DNA of 64,000 bases from Arenimonas sp. (GTDB lineage: Bacteria > Pseudomonadota > Gammaproteobacteria > Xanthomonadales > Xanthomonadaceae), in assembly GCF_035721105.1 (NCBI RefSeq), contig NZ_DASTNG010000017.1:23393-87392 (forward strand). Reading direction: 5' to 3'. The notes beneath the pieces are model-generated. The model ran no database searches. It was not told the origin of the DNA and saw nothing but the letters and a program-made list of their open reading frames with translations. Position numbers and translations under genes: made by a program. Below are positions 44,381 through 61,060 of the stretch, piece by piece (positions within the stretch are counted from its first letter, which is position 1; every line of letters starts with the position of its first letter).

Positions 44381-44809
44381 ATGCGCAACGTGAACCAGAT
44401 CCTCGAGAACAAGGGTAGCGGCGTCATCGCCGTGCCGCGCGAAGCGCCGGTGCTCGAGGTCATCCGCCTGATGGCCGAAAACCACATCGGCTCGGTCCTG
44501 GTGATGCAGGGCCAGGAACTGATCGGCATCGCCACCGAACGCGACTACGCCCGCAAGGTCATCCTGCAGGGCCGCTCCTCGGCTGAAACGCCGGTCGGCG
44601 CCATCATGTCCAGCCCGGTCGTCTCGGTGCTCCCCACCGACACCGCCCAGACCTGCATGCAGATCATGACCGCCCGCAAGATCCGCCACTTGCCCGTCCT
44701 CGACGACGGCCGCCTGGTCGGCATGGTTTCCATCGGCGACCTGGTCAAGGCCGTCATCGAAGACCAACAGCAGGAAATCGCCCAGCTCCAGCAGTACATC
44801 GCCAGCTGA
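44381..44809 (+). CDS. CBS-pair protein
   Basis: Two CBS repeats (IGIATERDYARKV, IRHLPV, VSIGDLVK). GGAGG RBS. Confidence 0.9.
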   Translation: MRNVNQILENKGSGVIAVPREAPVLEVIRLMAENHIGSVLVMQGQELIGIATERDYARKVILQGRSSAETPVGAIMSSPVVSVLPTDTAQTCMQIMTARKIRHLPVLDDGRLVGMVSIGDLVKAVIEDQQQEIAQLQQYIAS

Positions 44810-44830
44810 GGTGTCGCGGCGTTGGGGGTA

Positions 44831-44984
44831 GAAAGGGCTTTTGGACACGGATCAAAGCGGAAAGAGCGGATAAAGGCGGATAGAGCAAAAGCCTTTTGGA
44901 TTTTGCTCTGGGCTTCTTAATCGTTATCGCTTTATCCGCTCTTATCCGCTCTTTCCGCTTTGATCCGTGTCCAAAAGCCCTTTC
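44831..44984. repeat. ~150 bp inverted-repeat element built of 10-nt GCGGATAAAA-like units (copy 1)
   Basis: 43-bp perfect inverted arms at 44831-44873 and 44942-44984. Confidence 0.9.
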
Positions 44985-44997
44985 CCACCCGCCCCCC

Positions 44998-45648
44998 TCA
45001 GCCCCCCACCACCTGGTGGGTAACGGCCACGAAATGGCAGGCGCTGCCGATCAGGACGAAGGCGTGCCAGATGGCGTGGGCGAAGGGGATGCGGCGGCTC
45101 ATGTAGAAGACCGTGCCCAGGGTGTAGGCCAGGCCGCCGCCGAGCAGCCAGCCCAGGGTGTCCATCGGGATCTGGCGCAGGAACGGCTTGATCGCCAGCA
45201 CCACCATCCAGCCCATGCCCAGGTAGATCAGGGTGGACAGGCCCTTGAAGCGGCCGGTGAAGAACAGCTTGAACACCACGCCCGCCACCGCGAAGGTCCA
45301 GATGGCGGCGAACAGCCACCAGCCGCCGTCCTCGCGCAGGCCCACCAGGGTGAAGGGCGTGTACGTGCCAGCGATCAGCACGTAGATCGCGCAGTGGTCG
45401 AAGACCTTGAAGCGGCCCTTGATGATGCGGTCGTGGCTGGCGTGGTAGAGCGTCGAGGCCGAATACAGCAGCACCAGCGCGATGCTGAAGACGATGGCGC
45501 CGGCCAGCTGCCAGCCGTTGCCGAAGGCCGCCGACAGCGTGATGAGCACCGTGCCGCCGACCAGCGACGCCAGCGCGCCGATGCCGTGGGTGATGGCGTT
45601 GGCGCGCTCCTCGCGCGGCGATTCGTGGTCGTGCTCGTAGTCGGTCAT
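44998..45648 (-). CDS. Hemolysin III / PAQR family membrane protein
   Basis: [40 protein letters not shown]. Confidence 0.92.
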
Positions 45649-47541: not shown

Positions 47542-50500
47542 ATGCTCACTAGATTGACCGCCTTGCCATGGCTGCTGGCCGCCTGGCTCCTGTTGGCCGG
47601 AGCCGCCTCCGCCCAGGTCGCCACCTACGCGCCCGTCGGGCCCCAGAACAATGTCCCGCTGACCACCATCACCGGGGGCGGCTGGACCGAGTGCCACCGC
47701 GAGACCTTCGCCACCAACACCCCGATCGCCACCATTTCGGCCGCCTGCAACAAGGCGCAGATGATGATGGCCTGCACCAACGACGACAACACGATCCAGC
47801 TGCTGGCGCAGGCGCCCAAGGCGGACGTGATGTTCGACACCGGCACCGGCAACGTGGCGCGCGAGGCCAACGGCAGCGCCTGGTACTTCAACGGCTCCTG
47901 GTCCTGGGGCTTCGCGCCGGGCGGCGCCACGCTCAACCGCAGCTCCTGCGACGGCGGCGATGACCCGACCTTCTCGGTCAACCCCGACCCGATGCGCATG
48001 TGCATCCATACCGGCGCCAACAGCACCAGCAACGGCTGGCGCTGCGGCTCCACCACCGGCAACAACGGCTCCGGGATCTACGCCTTCCGCCGGATCTTCT
48101 TCCACGCCGACGGCGCCGTGGCCGGTGCCACCGTGCCGGGCGCGCCAACCGCCGCCAGCGCGGTCGCGGGCAACACCCAGGCCACCGTCAGCTTCACCGC
48201 GCCGGCCACCGACGGCGGCGCCGCCATCACCGGCTACCGCGTCACCTCCAGCCCGGACAACGTCGTCGCCACCGGCGGCACCAGCCCGATCCTGGTGACC
48301 GGCCTGACCAACGGCACCAGCTACACCTTCACGGTCGTCGCCATCAACGCGGTCGGCGACAGCCTGCCGTCGCTGCCGTCGAACGCGGTCGTGCCGGTCG
48401 GTCCGCCGACCCTGTCCAACTTCAACGACATCAACCGCACCTTCGGCGATGCCGACTTCGCGCTGGTGCCGCCGACCAGCGACAGCGCCGGTGCCTTCAG
48501 CTACACCAGCTCGAACCCGGCCGTGGCCACGGTCAGCGGCGACACCGTCACCCTCGTGGGTGCCGGCACCACCACCCTCACCGCCAACCAGGCGGCGGAC
48601 GGCGGCTTCACCGCCGGCTCGACCACCGCCACGCTCACGGTCGCCAAGGCCGTGCCGGTGGTGACCTGGATCGCGCCGCTCAGCCAGACCTTTGGCGATG
48701 CCGACTTCAGCCTGCCGGCGCCGACCAGCAGCAGCCCGGCCGCCTTCACCTACAGCTCGAACAACCCGGCCGTGGCCACGATCAGCGGCAACACCGTCAC
48801 CATCACCGGTGCCGGCAGCGCGATCCTGACGGCCAGCCAGCCCGAGGGCGCGAACCACCTGGCCGGTTCGGCCACGGTCTCGCTCACCGTCGCCACTGCG
48901 GATCCGGGCCTGTCGGGCTTCGCCGACCTCAACCGCGTGTTCGGCGAGCCGGCGTTCACGCTCTCGCCGCCGGCTTCGGCCAGCGCCGGTGCGTTCACCT
49001 ACACCAGCTCCAACCCGGCCGTGGCCACCGTCGCCGGTGACACCGTGACCCTGGTCGGCGCGGGCGTCACCACGCTCACCGCCAACCAGGCCGCCGACGG
49101 CAACTACGCCGCCAGCAGCACCACCGCCACGCTCACGGTCGCCAAGGCCGAGCCGGCCATCGGCTGGGTGGCGTCGCTCAACCGCACCTTCGGCGATGCC
49201 GCGTTCGCGCTGCCGGCGCCGACCAGCAACAGCACCGGTGCCTTCACCTACACCAGCTCGAACCCGGCCGTCGCCACGGTCAGCGGCAACACGGTCACCA
49301 TCGTCGCGGCCGGTACGGCCACGATCACCGCCAACCAGGCCGCTGACGCCAACTACAACGCGGGCAGCGCCAGCACCGTGCTGACCGTGGGCAAGGCCGC
49401 GCCGAACCTGGCGTGGATCGACGACATCTTCAAGACCTACGGCGAGGCCGATTTCGACCTGGCCGATCCGACCAGCGCCAGCCCGGGTGCCTTCACCTTC
49501 ACCAGCGCGAATGCCGCGGTGGCGACGGTGAGCGGCCGCACCGTCACCATCACCGGTTCGGGCAACACCGTGCTGACCGCGTCGCAGGCCGAGACCGCCA
49601 ACTACGCGGCGGCGTCGGTGACGACCACCCTGCGCGTGGATTCGCGTCCGGACCCGACCCGTGACCCGGGCGTGGTGGCCGGCCTTCAGGCCCAGGTGGA
49701 CGCCAGCGTGCGCTTCGCCAACGCCCAGCAGACCAACATCCGCGACCGCCTGCGCCAGGTGCGCTCGGGCAACAATGCCTCGAGCAATGCGCTGGCCCTG
49801 AACATGGGCAATGGCTTCGGCCCGGGCCTGTCGCTCAACGCCGGCCAGGCGCTGGGTGGCGACGCGCTGCCGCTGCCGGAAGGCTGGGGCTGGTGGACCG
49901 CCGGTGCGATCACCTTCGGTGACCGCGACGCGTCGCTGGGCAGCAGTGCCTTCGGCTTCCAGTCCGATGGCCTGAGCTTCGGCCTCGATCGCCGCGTCGG
50001 TGACAACGCGCTGATGGGCGTTGCGCTCGGCAACGGCTTCAGCGATGCCGATTTCGATGCCGACAACTCGTCGCTGGGCGGCAAGTACAAGTCGCTGTCG
50101 GTGTACGGCCTGTGGCGCAACGACCGCTTCTTCGTCGACGGCGTGCTGGGTGCGGGCCGCCTGGACTTCGACATCCGCCGCTACAGCGCGCTGGTGAACG
50201 ACTACGGCGTGGCCGACCGCGAGGGCGACCAGCGCTTCGTGTCGCTGACCGTGGGCCACGAGGCCCAGGGTGAGTCGATGCGGGTCGCCGGCTACGGCCG
50301 CTTCGACGCCAGCCGCACCGACCTGGACGCCTACCGCGAATCCGGCCTGGGCATCTACGACCTGAGCTACAGCGACCAGCGCGTGGACAGCCGCACGATG
50401 TCGATCGGCGCCGAGGGTGGCAACGCCTGGGCCACCCGCGCGGGCATGATCCGGCCGTACTGGCTGGTCGAGTACCGCAAGTCGCTCAAGGACCAGAGCG

Positions 50501-50805
50501 ACGTGGGCATCAACTACGTGGTGCTGCCCAACGCCAGCGACTACCTGCTGCGCCTGCGCAGCTACGCCGATGACGCCGTGGTCTGGGGCGGCGGCGTGGA
50601 TATGGACCTGGGTCCGCGCTGGGGCCTGGGCCTGCTGTACCGCGGCGAGAACGTCTCGGGCGTGGGCAGCAGCTACAGCGTGGGCCTGCAGCTGAGCTGG
50701 CGCGGCGGTCAGCCGTCGGCGCCGGTGACGGCCGAGGCGTCGGAAGCCTCCGATGCGGCGGCCGCGGCGCCGGCGATGGGCACGACCCGCACCGGCACCC
50801 GCTAA
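47542..50805 (+). CDS. Autotransporter adhesin: Cys-rich N-domain, FN3, five Ig-like repeats, beta-barrel
   Basis: Signal peptide, FN3 (VPGAPT...ITGYRVT...GLTNGTSYTFTV), 5 repeats with YTSSNPAVATV, C-terminal barrel (WWTAGAITFG...VGLQLSW). Confidence 0.87.
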   Translation: MLTRLTALPWLLAAWLLLAGAASAQVATYAPVGPQNNVPLTTITGGGWTECHRETFATNTPIATISAACNKAQMMMACTNDDNTIQLLAQAPKADVMFDTGTGNVAREANGSAWYFNGSWSWGFAPGGATLNRSSCDGGDDPTFSVNPDPMRMCIHTGANSTSNGWRCGSTTGNNGSGIYAFRRIFFHADGAVAGATVPGAPTAASAVAGNTQATVSFTAPATDGGAAITGYRVTSSPDNVVATGGTSPILVTGLTNGTSYTFTVVAINAVGDSLPSLPSNAVVPVGPPTLSNFNDINRTFGDADFALVPPTSDSAGAFSYTSSNPAVATVSGDTVTLVGAGTTTLTANQAADGGFTAGSTTATLTVAKAVPVVTWIAPLSQTFGDADFSLPAPTSSSPAAFTYSSNNPAVATISGNTVTITGAGSAILTASQPEGANHLAGSATVSLTVATADPGLSGFADLNRVFGEPAFTLSPPASASAGAFTYTSSNPAVATVAGDTVTLVGAGVTTLTANQAADGNYAASSTTATLTVAKAEPAIGWVASLNRTFGDAAFALPAPTSNSTGAFTYTSSNPAVATVSGNTVTIVAAGTATITANQAADANYNAGSASTVLTVGKAAPNLAWIDDIFKTYGEADFDLADPTSASPGAFTFTSANAAVATVSGRTVTITGSGNTVLTASQAETANYAAASVTTTLRVDSRPDPTRDPGVVAGLQAQVDASVRFANAQQTNIRDRLRQVRSGNNASSNALALNMGNGFGPGLSLNAGQALGGDALPLPEGWGWWTAGAITFGDRDASLGSSAFGFQSDGLSFGLDRRVGDNALMGVALGNGFSDADFDADNSSLGGKYKSLSVYGLWRNDRFFVDGVLGAGRLDFDIRRYSALVNDYGVADREGDQRFVSLTVGHEAQGESMRVAGYGRFDASRTDLDAYRESGLGIYDLSYSDQRVDSRTMSIGAEGGNAWATRAGMIRPYWLVEYRKSLKDQSDVGINYVVLPNASDYLLRLRSYADDAVVWGGGVDMDLGPRWGLGLLYRGENVSGVGSSYSVGLQLSWRGGQPSAPVTAEASEASDAAAAAPAMGTTRTGTR

Positions 50806-52585: not shown

Positions 52586-52598
52586 CCACCCCGCAACA

Positions 52599-52712
52599 CC
52601 CATCGAGACCGGCTGAGGGGTAGGCCCGAAGACGCCGGGGCAACCCATGCACGAGCAATCGCGCATGAAGGTGCCAATTCCTGCGGGGACCGCGCGTCCG
52701 CCGAGAGATGGG
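52599..52712 (+). ncRNA. SAM-I riboswitch aptamer
   Basis: P1 CCCATC/GATGGG, CTGAGGGG..GGCCC, GCAACC, GGTGCCAATTCCTGC, GAGAGATG, upstream of metX-metB-hom. Confidence 0.9.
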
Positions 52713-52765
52713 TCATGTGCTTCCCCGCCCCGGCGGGGCACGTGACGCCGCTTTCCCGCAAGAAC

Positions 52766-52800: not shown

Positions 52801-53937
52801 ATGAGTGTCCACCCCGCCCCCAGCCGCGCCCCGGCCGTTTCCGCCATCCCGGCGGTCCGCGCCATCACCGCCCCCGCCGCGGCCCTCCCTGTAGGAGGGC
52901 CTTCAGGCCCGAATCTCTTCGCCGCGACCCTGACGACGAAGCCGTCCGTCGAAACCGCTTCGGGCCTGACGCCCCTCCTGCAGGGCGCCACGGGCTTCAC
53001 GCTGCCCTGCGAACTACCCCTGCGCCACGCCGGCCCGCGCCACGTCGTGATCCGCGGCGAATGGCACGGGGCGCCCGGCGCGCCGGTGGTCGTGGTGGCG
53101 GGCGGCATTTCGGCCGGTCGCCAGGTCGTCGCGGGCGCGGCGTCCCCGGGCTGGTGGGACGCGCAGGTCGGCCCCGGCCGCGCCATCGATACCCGCCGCT
53201 TCCGCGTGCTGGCCCTCGACTGGCTGGGCGCCGACGGCGCGCTGGACGCCCCCATCGACAGTGCTGACCAGGCCGATGCTTTCGCCGCGGTGCTCGATCA
53301 CTTCGGACTGCGCCGGGTACGCGCCTTCGTCGGCGCCTCGTACGGGGCGATGGTCGGGCTGCAGTTCGCGGCGCGGCACGGCGATCGCCTCGATCGCCTC
53401 GTCGCAATCTCCGGCGCCCATCGCGCCCATCCCTACGCCAGCGCCTGGCGCGCGCTGCAGCGCCAGTGCGTGGCGCTGGGGCGCAGCGAGGGCAGCGTGT
53501 CGCGCGGCCTGGCCCTGGCCCGGCAGTTCGCGATGCTCAGCTATCGCACGCCCGAGGAATTCGGCGAACGCTTCGATGCACCGGCCGCGCTGCAGGGCAA
53601 CGTCGCCCGCTGCGCCGCCGAGGACTACCTGGCGCACTGCGGCCAGCGCTACGCCGCGCGCTGGACCAGCACCGCCTTCCTGCGCCTGTCCGAATCGATC
53701 GACCTGCACCGCGTCGATCCCGCCGGCGTGCGGGTGCCGACGACCGTGGTCGCGGTCGAGGATGACCGCCTGGTGCCGCTGGCCGACCTGCAGCAGCTGG
53801 TCGAGACGCTCGGTGCGCCGGCCACGCTGCGGCCGTTGCGCTCGCGCTTTGGCCACGACGCGTTCCTGAAGGAGGAGGCCGCGATCGCGCGGCTGCTGCG
53901 CGAAGCCCTGGCCGCGGCCGAAGGCGGTGCGGCGTGA
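52801..53937 (+). CDS. metX: Homoserine O-succinyl/acetyltransferase (MetX alpha/beta-hydrolase family)
   Basis: VAGGISA, GWWDAQVG, FVGASYGAMVGL, LSYRTPEEF, SESIDLH, FGHDAFLKE. Confidence 0.92.
   Translation: MSVHPAPSRAPAVSAIPAVRAITAPAAALPVGGPSGPNLFAATLTTKPSVETASGLTPLLQGATGFTLPCELPLRHAGPRHVVIRGEWHGAPGAPVVVVAGGISAGRQVVAGAASPGWWDAQVGPGRAIDTRRFRVLALDWLGADGALDAPIDSADQADAFAAVLDHFGLRRVRAFVGASYGAMVGLQFAARHGDRLDRLVAISGAHRAHPYASAWRALQRQCVALGRSEGSVSRGLALARQFAMLSYRTPEEFGERFDAPAALQGNVARCAAEDYLAHCGQRYAARWTSTAFLRLSESIDLHRVDPAGVRVPTTVVAVEDDRLVPLADLQQLVETLGAPATLRPLRSRFGHDAFLKEEAAIARLLREALAAAEGGAA
52889..52983. repeat. REP doublet (subtype B, right arm decayed) in the metX N-terminal coding region
   Basis: CTGTAGGAGGGCCTTCAGGCCCGAA (PVGGPSGPN) and TTCGGGCCTGACGCCCCTCCTGCAG (SGLTPLLQ). 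Confidence 0.85.
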
Positions 53938-55118: not shown

Positions 55119-56251
55119 ACCGGCCGCGGGAGGCCCTGGCACCGGCCGTACCCGGCACGGCAGCGACGCCGGCACGCGTGGCGCTGCTGGGCGTGGGTAC
55201 CGTCGGCCGCGCGCTGCTGGCGCGACTGGCCGAACGCAACGATCCGCGCCTGTCGCTGCAGTTCGTGGCGACCTCGCGCCGCCGCCTGCAGGCGACCGCG
55301 GGCCTGGCCGCCGCGGCCTGCGCCGAGGCGCTGGCGCGCAGCGACGGGCCCCGCGCGGCACCGCCGTCCCTCGCGTCGTCGACGGGCGCCGCCGCCCTGC
55401 CGGTCTGCGAACCCCACGACGGCGGCGGCGCCTTGCCCGCGCACTTCGGTCCGGGCGACATCGTCGTCGACGCGACGGCATCGGCCGAGCTTGCGGCCTG
55501 GCATCCGCGCTGGCTGCGCCAGGGCCTGCACGTGGTCAGTGCGAACAAGCTGGGCCTGGGCGGTCCGCTGCTGCGCCAGCACGAGATCGCGCAGCTGGTG
55601 AACGCCGAGCGCCGCTACGGCGACGCCGCCACCGTCGGCGCCGGGCTGCCGCTGCTGGCGACCCTGCGCCAACTGCGCGCCGGCGGCGACCGCATCGGCG
55701 CCATCGTCGGCGTGCTGTCGGGCACGCTGGCCTGGCTGTTCGACGGCTACGACGGCCGCGAGGCCTTCTCCGACCGCGTGCGCGCGGCGGTGGCCCAGGG
55801 CTATGCCGAGCCGGATCCGCGCGTCGATCTCTCGGGCGAAGACGTGCGCCGCAAGCTGCTGATCCTGGCGCGCACGGCCGGCTACCCGCTGGAGTCCGAG
55901 GAGGTGCGGGTGGATTCGCTGCTGACCCCGGCGCTGCAGGCCGCGGCCGCGGGCGAGGTCGACGCCGCCCTGCGCGGACTCGACGGTCCACTCGGCGAAC
56001 GCGCCGCCCGGGCCCGCGGCGACGGTCGCGTGCTGCGCTACGTCGCGCGCTTCGACGCCGCCGGCGCCCGGATCGGCCTGGAGTCGCTGGCGCCGGACGA
56101 TCCGATCGCCGTCGGTCGCGGCTGCGACAATCGCGTCGCGGTTTGGAGCAGCCGCTATCGGGAGCGTCCGCTGCAGATCCAGGGGCCCGGTGCGGGGGCT
56201 GGGGTTACGGCGGCTGCGCTGTTGGATGATTTGTTGCGGGTGGTGGGCTGA
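55115..56251 (+). CDS. hom: Homoserine dehydrogenase
   Basis: ALLGVGTVG, VVSANK, ATVGAGLP, GYAEPDPRVDLSGEDV.RKL, GPGAGAGVTA. Confidence 0.9.
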   Translation: MNRPREALAPAVPGTAATPARVALLGVGTVGRALLARLAERNDPRLSLQFVATSRRRLQATAGLAAAACAEALARSDGPRAAPPSLASSTGAAALPVCEPHDGGGALPAHFGPGDIVVDATASAELAAWHPRWLRQGLHVVSANKLGLGGPLLRQHEIAQLVNAERRYGDAATVGAGLPLLATLRQLRAGGDRIGAIVGVLSGTLAWLFDGYDGREAFSDRVRAAVAQGYAEPDPRVDLSGEDVRRKLLILARTAGYPLESEEVRVDSLLTPALQAAAAGEVDAALRGLDGPLGERAARARGDGRVLRYVARFDAAGARIGLESLAPDDPIAVGRGCDNRVAVWSSRYRERPLQIQGPGAGAGVTAAALLDDLLRVVG

Positions 56252-56273: not shown

Positions 56274-56417
56274 GGTTACACGGATCAAAGCGGAAAAGGC
56301 GGATAAGGGCCGATAGAGCAGAAAATAAGGGGGCCTGCGCGAGACGATTGATCGCGCGTTGGACCACTTGAGTTTTATCCGCTCTTATCTGATGTTTCCG
56401 CTCTTATCCGCGTTCAA
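56274..56417. repeat. 10-nt-unit inverted-repeat element (copy 2)
   Basis: ACACGGATCAAAGCGGAAAAGGCGGATAAGGGCCGATAGAGC ... TTATCCGCTCTTATCTGATGTTTCCGCTCTTATCCGCGTTCAA. Confidence 0.85.
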
Positions 56418-56468: not shown

Positions 56469-57632
56469 TCAAGGCGCCGTGCACTGCTCCTGTAGTCCGA
56501 GGGCGGCGGCGATGTCGCGCCAGTCGAAGGCGCCGATGCCCATGTCGTCGTGTACGGCATAGAAGACGCCGGCGGGGAAGCGGCGGGTGCCGGCCTGGTG
56601 CAGCCACACGCCGTCGGTGTTGGCGATGGTGTTGCCGGCGAAGGCGCCCAGCGGGTCCAGGGTGACGCGGTCGAAGACGTGGAACAGGCTGTGGTCCTTG
56701 AACTGGTCGGTGGCGATCCAGTAACCGCTGCCGTCGTCGCAGGCCCAGAGCGTCACGCCTTCGGCCTGCGCCTTGAAACGGCCAACGCCGATCGAGCGGC
56801 CCTTGAACTGGCCGTCCAGCGCGTACTCGCGGTAGCCGGTGCCGGTGGCGACGTCTTCCTCGGCGATCAGCAGGCGGTCGTTGGCGACGTCGCCCCACAG
56901 CGATTCGGGGATGCGGATCGCGCCCAGCACGCTGGTGGCGCCGAACGGGCCGGTCGGCTCGGCCGTCAGGGCGGCGGCGTCGCCGCGCACGCGGTAGCGA
57001 TGGATGCGGTGGTCCAGCTCGGCCATCGGCGGCAGGATGTCTTCGTCGCCGGCGTCCTGGCCGGCCATGTAGGCGTCGCTGACCAGCACCTCCAGGTCGT
57101 CCGGCGCATGGGCGCGTACCCACAGCCCGTAGGGCTTTTGCAGTGCGTCCTGGCCGAAGCCCAGCCGCGGCTCGAAGCCGGGCAGGGACAGCACCTGCAC
57201 CCGGGCGTTGTCGCGCTCGACCACGAACAGCAGGTCGCCCACGACCGCCACGCCGTTGGGCCGGTTGAACTGTCCCAGCGCCGGCCCGACGGTGCCGACG
57301 CTGCGCAGGGTCGCGCCGGTGTCGCCGTCGTAGACCACCAGGCCCTTGTCGCCTTCCTTGGCGGTGGCGATCACCCAGGTGCTGCCGTCAGGCGCGGTCC
57401 ACGCGGCCGGAGAGTCGATGTTGTCGGCCGGGACCATCGCGCTCAGGAAAGCTTCGGGCACCACCGCGTGGGCGATGCCGGACCCGGCCAGCAGCGGATC
57501 GACCTCGCCGTTCTCGTCCGGCTCGCGGTCGCGCACCGCGTCGGTGGTGGGCACGGCGTCGGGCGTCGGCGCCGAGCAGGCGGCGGCGATCAGCAGGGGC
57601 AGCAGGGCGAGCGGGAGCAGGGCGGGGCGCAT
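56469..57632 (-). CDS. Beta-propeller phytase-like lipoprotein (paralog 2)
   Basis: Lipobox AAAC. Clearly homologous to 51365-52480 (NIDSPAAW, PNGVAV, PYGLW, AEGVTLWACDDGSGYWIATDQ, TDGVWL). Confidence 0.75.
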   Translation of the reverse strand: MRPALLPLALLPLLIAAACSAPTPDAVPTTDAVRDREPDENGEVDPLLAGSGIAHAVVPEAFLSAMVPADNIDSPAAWTAPDGSTWVIATAKEGDKGLVVYDGDTGATLRSVGTVGPALGQFNRPNGVAVVGDLLFVVERDNARVQVLSLPGFEPRLGFGQDALQKPYGLWVRAHAPDDLEVLVSDAYMAGQDAGDEDILPPMAELDHRIHRYRVRGDAAALTAEPTGPFGATSVLGAIRIPESLWGDVANDRLLIAEEDVATGTGYREYALDGQFKGRSIGVGRFKAQAEGVTLWACDDGSGYWIATDQFKDHSLFHVFDRVTLDPLGAFAGNTIANTDGVWLHQAGTRRFPAGVFYAVHDDMGIGAFDWRDIAAALGLQEQCTAP

Positions 57633-57764: not shown

Positions 57765-60101
57765 ATGGCAATGACGAACCGACCGATCGCGTCCCGACTC
57801 TCGCTGGCCATCGCCGGCGCCCTGCTGGCCAGCGCAGGCCTCGCCGCCGCGCAGTCGCCGGCTCCGGCGCTCTCGCCGGACGGCGCGGTGCGCGAACTCG
57901 ACGCCATCGTGGTGCAGGGCGAGATCATCTACCGCGACCGCAGCGCCGACATCGCCCCGACCCTGAGCTACGACCTCGAGTATTTCCAGCGCTTCGAGCC
58001 GCTGACCGTGGGCGACATGCTCAAGCGCGTGCCGAGCGTGGCCTTCGTTTCCGACGTACTTGAATACGACGGCGCCCAGCTGCGCGGCCTGGATCCGGGC
58101 TACACTCAGATCCTGATCAACGGCAAGAAGGTGCCGGGCGCCGGCGCCGACCGCAGCTTCTTCGTCGACCGCATCCCGGCCGAGCTGGTCGAGCGCATCG
58201 AGATCGTGCGCGCGCCCAGCGCCAACCGCTCCGGCGATGCGGTCGCCGGTGCGCTCAACATCGTGCTGCGTGACGCCTTCGAGTTCGACGGTGCCTACGT
58301 GCGCGCCGGTGCGCTGCGCTTCGACGACGGCGAAGTGAAGCCGACCTACGGCGCCGTGGCCAGCGGCGATGTCGGCGGCGGGCGGCTGCTGGGCGGCATC
58401 AACGTGCAGGGCCGCTACAATCCGAAGGCCAAGTTCAGCACCCGGCTGAGCGAGCCGGGCGGCGACTTCGACAATCGCGAGGACCAGACCGACGTCCGCG
58501 ACGGCACCGACTACTCGGGCAACGTGTCCTACACCCGCGAGGTCGGCAGCGGCGAGCTCAAGCTCACCGGCCTGTACGTGCTCACCGACCGTACCCAGAC
58601 CGAGGACTCCATCGAGTACAACGCGCCGACCGGCACCTCCCGCGACAACCTGCTGTCCGTGAACCGCCAGGTGGTCGAGATCGACCAGACCAACCTCGCG
58701 CTGGGCGCCGCCTATGAGTTCGACATGGCCGGTGGCCGCACCGAGATCGACTTCGGGTACGCGGCGTTCAAAGACGAGCAGTTCGACACCGAGGTCGAGA
58801 CCGGCTACGACGATGACGACACGCCGCCGTCCTTCGACGAGTTCGAGGGCGAGCGCACCCTGACCGACGTCGAGGACACCGAGTCCTCGCTGAAGCTGGC
58901 GCACGTGCGCGACCTGGCGGGCAGCCGCTTCGAGTTCGGCCTGGACGCGATGGACAAGTCCCGCGACGCCGACATCCGCATCGCCGAATCCGCCACCGAC
59001 GTCGAGGGCGAGCCGCTGCCGCCGCTCACCGACTTCGACCGCCGCACCAGCCGCATCGATGAGCGCCGGCTCGATCCCTACCTGATGGTCTCGGGCGGCG
59101 ACGTGCTGGAATGGCAGGCCGGCCTGCGCTACGAAACCACCGACGTGGCCGTGGCGGCCGACGGCGACCGCGAGGACAACGACTATGCGGTGCTGCTGCC
59201 CTCGGCCAGCCTGCGCTGGAACCTGGGCGAAGACGACCGCCTGAGCCTGTCGCTGGGCCGCACGGTGCGCCGCCCGGGCTTCGACTTCGTGCTGCCGCTG
59301 CTGCTGGAGGAGGAGTACGGCGACAACGATTTCCTGGGCAACCCGCAGCTCGATCCCGAGACGGCCTGGGGCATCGACCTGGGCTTCGAGCGCCGCCTGG
59401 GCCGCAAGGGCATCGTCGGCGTGAACCTGTTCTACCGCGACATCACCGACCTGATCGAGGTGGTGAACACGGGCGTGCCGAACGAAACCGCGCTCGATGA
59501 CTATGCCGACGACGTCGAGGACTTCCTGGACGAGAACCCGGGCGCCGACGAGACCACGCCGGGCTATCCGGTGTTCGACCCGCAGAGCTTCGTCTACACC
59601 GCGGCCAACGTCGGCGACGGCTACGTGTACGGCATCGAGTTCGACGCCTCGACGCCGCTGACCGCGCTGGGCCTGCCCAACACGGGCGTGTTCGTGAACT
59701 ATTCCTGGCTCGACAGCTCGGTCGACGATGCGTTCGGTGAGCGCCGCTTCAACAACCAGGCCCGCTACGTCTACAACCTCGGCTTCATCCACGACATGCC
59801 GTCGCTGGCGGCCTCCTTCGGCGCCAGCTACCGCAAGCAGGGCGACGCCGAGCTGCGCATCCTGGCCGAGGAAGTCCGCACGTCCTACGGCGCCGACCTA
59901 GAGGTCTTCATCGAAAAGCGCTTCGGCGACAAGCTCTCCGTCCGCCTGACCGGCTCCAACCTGCTGGACGCCAGCAAGGACGAGGTCTTCGACAAGTTCG
60001 ACAACGGCATCGACCAGGCCAACCGCGACTACGACGAATACGAACTCGAGACCGAATCCGCCGGCCCGGTGTACCAGCTGATCGCCCGCTACTCGTTCTG
60101 A
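57765..60101 (+). CDS. TonB-dependent receptor
   Basis: Signal peptide, TonB box ELDAIVVQG, plug (LRGLDPGYTQILING, IPAELVERIEIVR), C-terminal VYQLIARYSF. Confidence 0.93.
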   Translation: MAMTNRPIASRLSLAIAGALLASAGLAAAQSPAPALSPDGAVRELDAIVVQGEIIYRDRSADIAPTLSYDLEYFQRFEPLTVGDMLKRVPSVAFVSDVLEYDGAQLRGLDPGYTQILINGKKVPGAGADRSFFVDRIPAELVERIEIVRAPSANRSGDAVAGALNIVLRDAFEFDGAYVRAGALRFDDGEVKPTYGAVASGDVGGGRLLGGINVQGRYNPKAKFSTRLSEPGGDFDNREDQTDVRDGTDYSGNVSYTREVGSGELKLTGLYVLTDRTQTEDSIEYNAPTGTSRDNLLSVNRQVVEIDQTNLALGAAYEFDMAGGRTEIDFGYAAFKDEQFDTEVETGYDDDDTPPSFDEFEGERTLTDVEDTESSLKLAHVRDLAGSRFEFGLDAMDKSRDADIRIAESATDVEGEPLPPLTDFDRRTSRIDERRLDPYLMVSGGDVLEWQAGLRYETTDVAVAADGDREDNDYAVLLPSASLRWNLGEDDRLSLSLGRTVRRPGFDFVLPLLLEEEYGDNDFLGNPQLDPETAWGIDLGFERRLGRKGIVGVNLFYRDITDLIEVVNTGVPNETALDDYADDVEDFLDENPGADETTPGYPVFDPQSFVYTAANVGDGYVYGIEFDASTPLTALGLPNTGVFVNYSWLDSSVDDAFGERRFNNQARYVYNLGFIHDMPSLAASFGASYRKQGDAELRILAEEVRTSYGADLEVFIEKRFGDKLSVRLTGSNLLDASKDEVFDKFDNGIDQANRDYDEYELETESAGPVYQLIARYSF

Positions 60102-60124: not shown

Positions 60125-60270
60125 TTCAACGCGGATAAAAGCGGATAAACACGGATAAACGCGGATAGAGCAAAAGATGGTCTGATCCACGCCAGCACCC
60201 AAAAACCGCCGAAAACCACTCAAGCCTTATCGGCTCTTATCCGCCTTTTCCGCTCTGATCCGTGTAAACC
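60125..60270. repeat. 10-nt-unit inverted-repeat element (copy 3)
   Basis: TTCAACGCGGATAAAAGCGGATAAACACGGATAAACGCGGATAGAGCAAAA ... TTATCGGCTCTTATCCGCCTTTTCCGCTCTGATCCGTGTAAA. Confidence 0.87.
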
Positions 60271-60274
60271 GCTC

Positions 60275-61060
60275 TTACTCCAACGGCAGGAAGCCAGCCG
60301 GCCCGACCATGCGAAAAGGAATGGCGGCCAAGGCCAGCCCAGCATTGACCTGGACCGCGAAATGCAGATGCGGCCCGCTGGAGTAGCCCGTGTTGCCGGT
60401 GCGACCGATGACCTGCCCCAGCGACACCGTGTCGCCCGGGCGGACGAAGACCCCGTCCGGCTGCAGGTGGGCGTACAGCGCCATGCTGCCGTCCTCGTGC
60501 AGGACCCGGATGAGGTTGGCGCGGTTGGCCAGGGCCGGGTCAACCCCGCCTTCGCGGAAGTTGCCCTCGGCCTGCATCACCACGCCGGCGCGGGCGGCCA
60601 GCACCGGCGTGCCCTCGGGCACGATCAGGTCGACGGCGTAGCGGTTGGCGCGGTCCTGGTGGCTGAAGCCACCGTGGAAGCCCTGGCCCAGCTCGAAGCG
60701 GCGCTCGTCCACCGGCAGCGAATAGACCACGTCGCGCGCGACCTGGCCCGGTTCGCCGGCGGTGGCGTCCAGGCGCAGCGACTGCCGGGCATTGGCCGAC
60801 AGCGCCGTCAGCCGGACCAGCCGCACCCGCGCCCGCGGCGGCAGCACCTGGCGCAGGGGCAGGGCGGTGTCGTTGGCCATGTCGACCAGCTCCAGCGCGT
60901 TGAGCTCGACTTCCACCGGGCCGGCCAGCCGGTTCACGGCGTAGGCGACCACGTCCTGGCCGCGGCGCTCGATCACCAGCTCGGCCGGGCTGTCGTCATC
61001 CGCGACGGCGGGGCCGACGACGCCCAGCAGGGCGCAGGCCAGCCAGCGCCAGGCCTTCAC
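60275..61060 (-). CDS. M23 family metallopeptidase
   Basis: SH...AVDLIVPEGTPVLAARAG, YAHL, GNTGYSSGPHLHF. Confidence 0.9.
   Translation of the reverse strand: MKAWRWLACALLGVVGPAVADDDSPAELVIERRGQDVVAYAVNRLAGPVEVELNALELVDMANDTALPLRQVLPPRARVRLVRLTALSANARQSLRLDATAGEPGQVARDVVYSLPVDERRFELGQGFHGGFSHQDRANRYAVDLIVPEGTPVLAARAGVVMQAEGNFREGGVDPALANRANLIRVLHEDGSMALYAHLQPDGVFVRPGDTVSLGQVIGRTGNTGYSSGPHLHFAVQVNAGLALAAIPFRMVGPAGFLPLE

Follow-up and report, generated by a model that had tools for sequence, protein, structure and literature searches.

Three palindromic elements (A, B and C) that lie between genes in a stretch of Arenimonas DNA are, by our estimate with a probability of roughly 60%, gene-less or miniature members of a family of palindromic cassettes, in whose gene-carrying form inverted arrays of short repeats box a gene for a GxxExxY nuclease. 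The best reading of the family, drawn by analogy with REP/RAYT or NTS/Ssn, would be that of a nuclease-associated selfish palindromic repeat, which is tolerated at the 3' ends of genes. The stretch analyzed, referred to here as the window, is 64,000 nt long and corresponds to positions 23393-87392 of contig C17 in a 2.97-Mb genome of 87 contigs and 70% GC (G000).

Three palindromic elements and their family

Element A occupies almost the entire intergenic gap (44810-44997) between a CBS-domain gene (44381-44809, plus strand) and a gene of the haemolysin-III (HlyIII) family (44998-45648, minus strand), both of which point their 3' ends toward it. The whole palindrome spans 44821-44994 when its outer extension of a G-run and a C-run is included. 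Its left arm (44831-44886, plus strand) is made up of an outer stretch, GAAAGGGCTT, and the terminus TTGGAC, followed by four phased units, ACGGATCAAA, GCGGAAAGA, GCGGATAAAG and GCGGATAGAGC. The right arm (44929-44984, minus strand) is an inverted copy of the left, and the centre between them (44887-44928) is a unique sequence of 42 nt. An inverted-repeat search returned arms of 56 nt each, 95% complementary and 42 nt apart; read directly, the first 43 nt of both arms are identical, which bears out the perfect 43-bp arms described in an earlier note on this DNA. The inner repeat described there, AGAGCAAAA/TTTTGCTCT, is present as well, and a small inner hairpin, AGAGCAAAAGCC..TTTTGCTCT at 44881-44908, overlaps the centre.

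Element B has its left arm at 56276-56319 (plus strand; C17:79668-79711; TTACACGGATCAAAGCGGAAAAGGCGGATAAGGGCCGATAGAGC) and its right arm at 56375-56417 (minus strand; C17:79767-79809), between the homoserine dehydrogenase gene hom (55178-56251, plus strand) and a phytase-like gene (56469-57632, minus strand). The arms of element C, at 60125-60171 (plus strand; C17:83517-83563; TTCAACGCGGATAAAAGCGGATAAACACGGATAAACGCGGATAGAGC) and 60224-60268 (minus strand; C17:83616-83660), lie between a TonB-dependent receptor gene (57771-60101, plus strand) and a peptidase M23 gene (60275-61060, minus strand). Here too, the flanking genes all have their 3' ends toward the element. That B and C are related to A was confirmed by alignment of their arms, to which the mutual similarity is confined, while the centres are unrelated. 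The identities that had been given to the flanking genes were correct in all six cases, as was the description of all three junctions as convergent. The absence of classical terminators at these junctions was upheld by a consensus scan, in which none stood above chance and the overall count of terminator-like sites at the borders of A, B and C was at chance level.

No Rfam family reached its gathering threshold at the elements in a search of the window, and no match to a described repeat family was found in Rfam. In an E-value search, element A matched miRNA-precursor models below threshold only, and these matches were rejected as a generic effect of long hairpins. The only Rfam family above threshold in the window was a SAM riboswitch (RF00162, 76 bits) at 52597-52714 on the plus strand, directly upstream of the start of the metX-hom operon at 52801.

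To define the family across the genome, we used an iterated nhmmer search seeded with the six window arms, followed by pairing of the arms. The phased decamer array seen in the window thereby extended to a family of about 75 pairs of arms facing head to head, plus four arms that are truly solo. Each element consists of two inverted arms around an unrelated centre, and each arm holds 3-5 phased units of about 10 nt with the core CGGAT (3 or 4 units in 144 of 150 arms). Arms start with TT(T/G)(A/G)AC(A/G)CGGAT, followed by 3 or 4 units, and their consensus reads TTKAACRCGGAT, then (N5 CGGAT) repeats, without GTAG. Across the roughly 75 copies, CGGAT-type cores are spaced by 10 nt in 318 of 390 intervals (82%) and by 9 nt in 47 of 390. 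The arms have a GC content of 49%, against 70% genome-wide. Elements have a median length of 155 bp (range 88-452) with a median centre of 67 nt, and together make up 0.41% of the genome. Several arm subfamilies can be told apart, such as GCGGATCAGAGCGGAAAC-NN-CGGATAAGAGCGGATA, CCACGGATGAACACGGATAA and ACGCGGATTTACGCGGATAAACGCGGATAGAGC, and within an element, both arms fall into one subfamily almost without exception. A hypervariable dinucleotide likewise matches between the arms of one element and varies among elements. The family is unrelated to the GTAG REP, as had been stated earlier; a separate GTAG REP family is present in the same genome.

An all-against-all BLAST of the centres gave no support for a conserved core of the kind expected in a MITE, since no centres were held in common, except for one 57-nt hairpin in three copies. 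This motif, AAAAGGGGTCAGAGTGCAT..ATGCACTCTGACCCCTTTT, is found outside the window at C21:95721-95995, C39:71839-72059 and C39:23665-23865, and forms a perfect hairpin of about 20 bp with an A-tract on one side and a T-tract on the other. It resembles a bidirectional terminator and may represent a third small repeat family. At C21:95721-95995, it is preceded by two CACGAAA-type units. Four elements are nested in the centre of another element, and one copy, at C55:52345, sits within a GTAG REP doublet.

A GxxExxY gene between the same arms

The elements had been proposed to be non-autonomous, with an ORF bracketed by the arms as a candidate mobilizer. A copy that carries such an ORF was found outside the window, at C24:3265-3716. 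It is the one family member with a long centre, in which the arms box the sole PF13366 match of the genome (C24:3322-3654; 131.7 bits, and 126 bits for TIGR04256, ‘GxxExxY protein’). As this genome has an ORF boxed by the same arms, A, B and C can be regarded as non-autonomous. The ATG of the gene directly follows the left array; at its other end, the ORF continues across the right array and ends in a tail of low confidence. With 57.5% GC and a GC3 of 71%, the ORF is atypical for the genome, and PF13366 was the only Pfam domain found in its product.

In an alignment of 30 sequences, residues G21, E26, Y29, K77, Q89, Y93, N106 and F107 of the GxxExxY protein are invariant, and D65 and E75 are nearly so. 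The combination of D...E-x-K with Q-x-x-x-Y is a signature of RecB/Cas4-type nucleases. An AlphaFold model of the protein (pLDDT 90.9, pTM 0.84) had Cas4 SSO0001, the lambda and alkaline exonucleases and the Holliday-junction resolvase Hjc as its Foldseek neighbours, with TM values of about 0.5. The protein is thus predicted to adopt a RecB/Cas4-like PD-(D/E)XK nuclease fold in which the catalytic residues are intact. A sequence search of the PDB revealed no solved relative; a marginal match to a ‘Dandelion-hepn’ chain was set aside. The family PF13366/GxxExxY (PDDEXK_3), whose small proteins are very common in bacteria and archaea, is listed as ‘unknown’ in function and has undergone multiple transfers between divisions (Steczkiewicz et al. 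2012, PMC3424549). The protein was found in only 8 plasmid records, mostly of megaplasmids, and is therefore not a plasmid-borne trait.

Among 37 genomes of the genus searched for both arms and the PF13366 gene, four carried both: G000 (151 arms), G017 (112), G002 (64) and G199 (15). Arms without the gene were found in G200 (62 arms, or about 31 elements), G198 (35), G003 and G006 (19 each), G008 (10), and G014 and G196 (2 each), and the 26 other genomes had neither. The gene is therefore present in 4 of 11 arm-bearing and 0 of 26 armless genomes (Fisher p = 0.005), with a copy number of elements that varies from 0 to about 75 among congeners. In all four gene-carrying genomes, the gene lies between arms, and its position is one and the same syntenic site, with an enoyl-CoA-hydratase-like gene on one side and a carboxylase gene on the other. 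In G017, the arms around it belong to a different subfamily than in G000. In G199, the gene is inverted relative to its flanks and to G000, as expected if inverted arms recombine. In the left arm of the G199 cassette (L186, G199:C1 about 1000381-1000900), two dialects are combined: four ACACGGATGA-type units come first, and five GCGGATAAGA units after them.

Beyond the genus, arms were patchily distributed across the order: 14 of the 151 genomes had them, and 5 of the 64 genera, and none were found in the sampled genomes of other genera of the window's own family. One genome of another genus in the order carries four same-strand arm matches about 185-200 bp apart (G046:C1:841605-842221), which form a tandem array of arm-bearing units and not a single palindrome.

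To look further afield, we scanned a four-unit CGGAT pattern over genomes of 185,579 species. More than 113 stretches in many phyla matched, where by our own rough estimate fewer than one would be expected by chance. The matches listed came from Acidobacteriota, Planctomycetota, Verrucomicrobiota, Chloroflexota, Cyanobacteria, Beta- and Deltaproteobacteria, and others. Some of these listed matches were plain microsatellites and many were palindromes of a plus array, a short spacer and a minus array; named Arenimonas records among them carry the same repeats. At two cross-phylum loci, the arrays box an ORF of about 120 aa with a G-x-x-E-x-x-Y motif, and 14 of 16 array-bearing cross-phylum genomes have PF13366 genes, with 1-37 per genome.

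Approached from the side of the protein, 5 of 30 GxxExxY genes examined in these genomes had flanking arrays in a CGGAT-type search. When the flanks of 22 other GxxExxY genes were inspected by eye, inverted arrays of short units were seen at most of them, with units that differed from gene to gene (CACGAAR, CGCAAAG, ACAGGAT, ACGGAA, CRCAGAG, CGCCAAG, CACTGAA and CGGAT). Unit types, as labelled by eye, were placed on a maximum-likelihood protein tree of 35 copies, on which they required 10 changes (the minimum being 8), compared to a mean of 18.0 after shuffling; none of 200 shuffles equalled the observed number. The clades of the protein cut across phyla. A link between such repeats and GxxExxY genes in other bacteria, which the earlier note had suggested, is thus substantiated by inverted arrays that box these genes across phyla. 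Judged from these sequence comparisons, arms and nuclease gene are shown to travel and diversify together across phyla.

Gene ends, turnover and alternative roles

The position of the elements relative to genes was determined with our own codon-bias (GC3-based) gene caller, which called 2604 genes (90% coding). Of 71 non-nested elements, 41 lie at convergent, 29 at tandem and 1 at divergent junctions, while the genome has 350 convergent, 1807 tandem and 360 divergent junctions. This bias is very strong (chi-square p = 7e-26), and comprises both an enrichment at convergent junctions (p = 9e-18), 12% of which are occupied by elements, and a depletion at divergent ones (p = 2e-4). The genome-wide copies therefore show the orientation bias that the window had suggested, but with 29 of 71 copies between tandem genes, the elements do not occur only between convergent genes; that impression arose because the window sampled just three copies. 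Rather, the rule is that an element follows the 3' end of a gene and that promoter gaps are avoided: 70 of 71 copies are positioned after a 3' end, and the median distance from an element to the nearest gene end is 12 nt.

Relatives provided the empty sites with which these locations could be compared. Site A is empty in five congeners. G015, which has no arms, has compact junctions where G000 has elements. At the site of the GxxExxY gene, the same two flanking genes overlap in G015 as a TGATG stop/start; at another site, two tandem genes, which we take to be trpB-trpA, share a GTGA overlap, and at two further sites convergent stop codons are 1-3 nt apart. The block absent from G015 extends past each TTGAAC terminus by about 20 nt, which are rich in G on the left and in C on the right. 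At two other sites compared with G015, both genes next to the element have their last 2-4 codons rewritten by it. At the gene-carrying copy, the stop codon of the upstream enoyl-CoA-hydratase-like gene is a TGA within the terminus TTGAAC (C24:3255-3275). In this way, the elements account for changes in C-termini and for new stop codons where genes end. In a tree of a 1.07-kb gene, the five ingroup lineages form a polytomy, and G014, G015 and G018 either never had the family or lost it.

The genome nearest to G000 is G017, with flanks that are 87% identical. Of the 26 sites that were mapped there, about 20 likewise hold an element, on which basis most copies are old, and no recent insertion was seen against this closest compared genome, at about 87% identity in the flanks. 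Arms likewise follow hom directly in G017, where G000 has element B. At common sites, the arms are 65% and the centres 49% identical between the two genomes, and at many of them the arm subfamily differs, both arms having changed together. One seemingly empty site in G017 had kept the right terminus, and is a deletion remnant and not a true empty site. At two others (L020 and L013, orthologous to C5:2665 and to window site A of G000), a GTAG REP doublet or a REP half-site is found instead, and both families of repeats appear to be in competition for these positions at gene ends.

No target-site duplication was found, and the flanks contain no direct repeat. An inverted target-site duplication was rejected as a general feature, as the outer flanks of one element were only marginally more complementary (8.6 of 20) than random pairs (8.1 of 20), and only 3 of 66, A among them, were strong. 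Exact insertion ends could not be read from the junctions in G017, because the flanks diverge by about 13%.

The lack of a target-site duplication, the age of most copies and the fixed position of the gene at one syntenic site in four species would each fit a system that is not a transposon at all. There is a published precedent for this: NTS/SRM repeats frame the gene for Ssn, a small GIY-YIG single-strand nuclease, have hundreds of orphan copies near genes, and show a repeat variant that tracks the Ssn homolog across phyla (Chenal et al. 2025, PMC11893778). This layout matches the one seen here: a small nuclease gene has its own hairpin-forming repeat on either side, and orphan copies occur elsewhere. 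By analogy, the GxxExxY nuclease might recognize its own repeats in single-stranded DNA, such as transforming DNA or replication forks, and so modulate recombination or transformation or mark self, while the repeats would spread by ordinary recombination or another agent. We consider this role unlikely, though it is the main rival to our reading. It would leave unexplained the precise placement at gene ends of about 75 copies with unrelated centres, their nesting, and a copy number of 0 to 75 among congeners. The two systems also differ in their nuclease, which is GIY-YIG there and predicted to be PD-(D/E)XK here, and in their repeat, a single short hairpin there, whereas two inverted tandem arrays with a variable centre are found here. 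The biochemistry is known for Ssn, whereas the cassette protein is a predicted nuclease.

The folding of the elements as RNA raises another alternative. Element A folds with -119 kcal/mol (z = -17), and B and C with z-scores of -3 to -5. Over 74 elements, the median z-score was -11.7, and every element folded far better than shuffled sequence. Such stable hairpins could, in line with the terminator or stabilizer role suggested in the earlier note, be kept by the host as 3'-end elements that terminate or stabilize convergent and operon transcripts, as has been proposed for REP/BIME, with the nuclease gene as mere cargo in one copy. The position after gene 3' ends, the occupancy of convergent junctions, the absence of classical terminators at the three window junctions and the better conservation of arms than of centres between species all agree with such a function. 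However, no U-tract or flanking A/U tracts were found after the stems, and close relatives lack the elements at the same junctions, where their stop codons are 1-3 nt apart. In addition, purifying selection alone, in the form of simple selection against promoter insertions, is expected to give the same location bias, and the co-phylogeny of arms and protein across phyla is not accounted for. We give a host-serving role only a slim chance. Rho-independent bidirectional terminators, which likewise place a strong hairpin between convergent genes, also differ in form: their stems are 5-12 bp long, GC-rich and followed by a U-tract, whereas the stems here measure 40-55 bp at 49% GC.

Finally, the phased units might be bound by a DNA-binding or nucleoid protein of the host, or their AT-rich DNA might be intrinsically curved, in either case without relation to the nuclease. 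This would match the 10-nt phasing and the arms of 49% GC in a genome of 70% GC, but is very improbable, since no candidate protein was identified, the elements are absent from most congeners, and the units differ wholly in sequence between the dialects of different phyla, with no change in architecture or in the linked gene.

Proposed mechanism and closest known systems

Under the preferred reading of a nuclease-associated selfish repeat, the arms would be the cognate site of the nuclease. Phasing at one helical turn would bring every CGGAT core to the same face, be it of the duplex or of a folded stem. Folded as single-stranded DNA or as a cruciform, the palindrome would form a stem of 40-55 bp from the paired arrays, which is the form most likely to be recognized. 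A cut at or near the folded arms, combined with host repair or replication, may lead to elements being copied, replaced or removed, and gene-less copies would be acted on in trans. Copies in 3' UTRs would give rise to very stable RNA hairpins, which may block 3' exonucleases or attract RNase III; such effects would be a side effect and not the reason for the elements' existence. The suggestion of a phased protein-binding array, made when only the window had been read, thus persists in changed form, the likeliest candidate partner being the cassette's own nuclease.

Several points weigh against this mobile reading. A PD-(D/E)XK nuclease cannot rejoin DNA alone, most copies are old, and a target-site duplication was not found. 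G200 contains about 31 elements without the gene, and the centres are unrelated between copies, unlike those of classical MITEs. The gene occupies one syntenic site in four species, and hence the gene-carrying copy shows no movement within the genus. In addition, the gene-carrying copy of G000 has arms of a dialect that makes up a minor subfamily there, and another dialect surrounds the gene in G017, which argues against strict cognate recognition.

Of the known systems, REP/REPIN-RAYT (TnpA-REP, Y1 HUH; ‘REPtrons’) shares many of these features. Its repeats, too, are short, extragenic and palindromic, number tens to hundreds per genome, form inverted doublets that fold into a long hairpin, and are placed after gene 3' ends. 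A single small nuclease-type gene is flanked by them, and their distribution is patchy among relatives. The elements described here, however, lack the 5' GTAG and the imperfect palindrome of 20-40 nt typical of REPs, having arms of 3-5 phased units of 9-10 nt instead, and the linked protein has a predicted PD-(D/E)XK (RecB/Cas4-like) fold, whereas RAYT is a Y1 HUH (IS200-like) transposase. Classical MITEs, such as Correia/NEMIS, ERIC and RUP, are similar in size (about 100-300 bp), in their terminal inverted repeats, and in being non-coding, present in many copies, and located beside or between genes with which they are co-transcribed. Unlike these, whose conserved internal sequence goes back to a parent IS, our elements have unrelated centres and no detected target-site duplication, and their parent encodes no DDE or other transposase, only a nuclease domain of about 115 aa. 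The gene-less elements A, B and C thus belong with the nuclease-associated dispersed repeats, of which the closest published examples, REP/REPIN-RAYT and NTS/SRM-Ssn, differ in nuclease fold and in repeat architecture. In the literature we searched, the pairing of this nuclease with repeats apparently has no published description; GxxExxY is rarely mentioned there, and never together with repeats. Searches of the literature on Arenimonas REP repeats and on cyanobacterial STRR repeats yielded nothing relevant.

A more far-reaching proposal can be made, which we regard as doubtful. GxxExxY proteins and phased-array palindromes might together constitute a pan-bacterial class of mobile or self-propagating DNA, which uses a RecB/Cas4-like nuclease of about 115 aa and host repair on arms folded as hairpin or cruciform. 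In this Arenimonas lineage, a single resident nuclease gene would then have acted in trans to send about 75 gene-less copies to gene ends in one burst.

For the GxxExxY family, an abundant DNA partner provides a directly testable substrate. Arenimonas offers a natural experiment in this respect, with one gene copy, about 75 orphan sites, congeners with 0-75 copies, and clean empty sites. Should the nuclease prove specific, by sequence or by structure, to phased arrays or hairpins, it might find use as an enzyme, as Ssn has. For genome annotation, the elements explain many spurious small ORFs.

In the window itself, a large ORF of 1083 aa at 47554-50805 (plus strand) had no DNA match in 14 of 16 congeners. 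Weak matches were found in G191 and G193, the latter in the form of several tandem-looking pieces, and the ORF is probably an accessory, internally repetitive gene.
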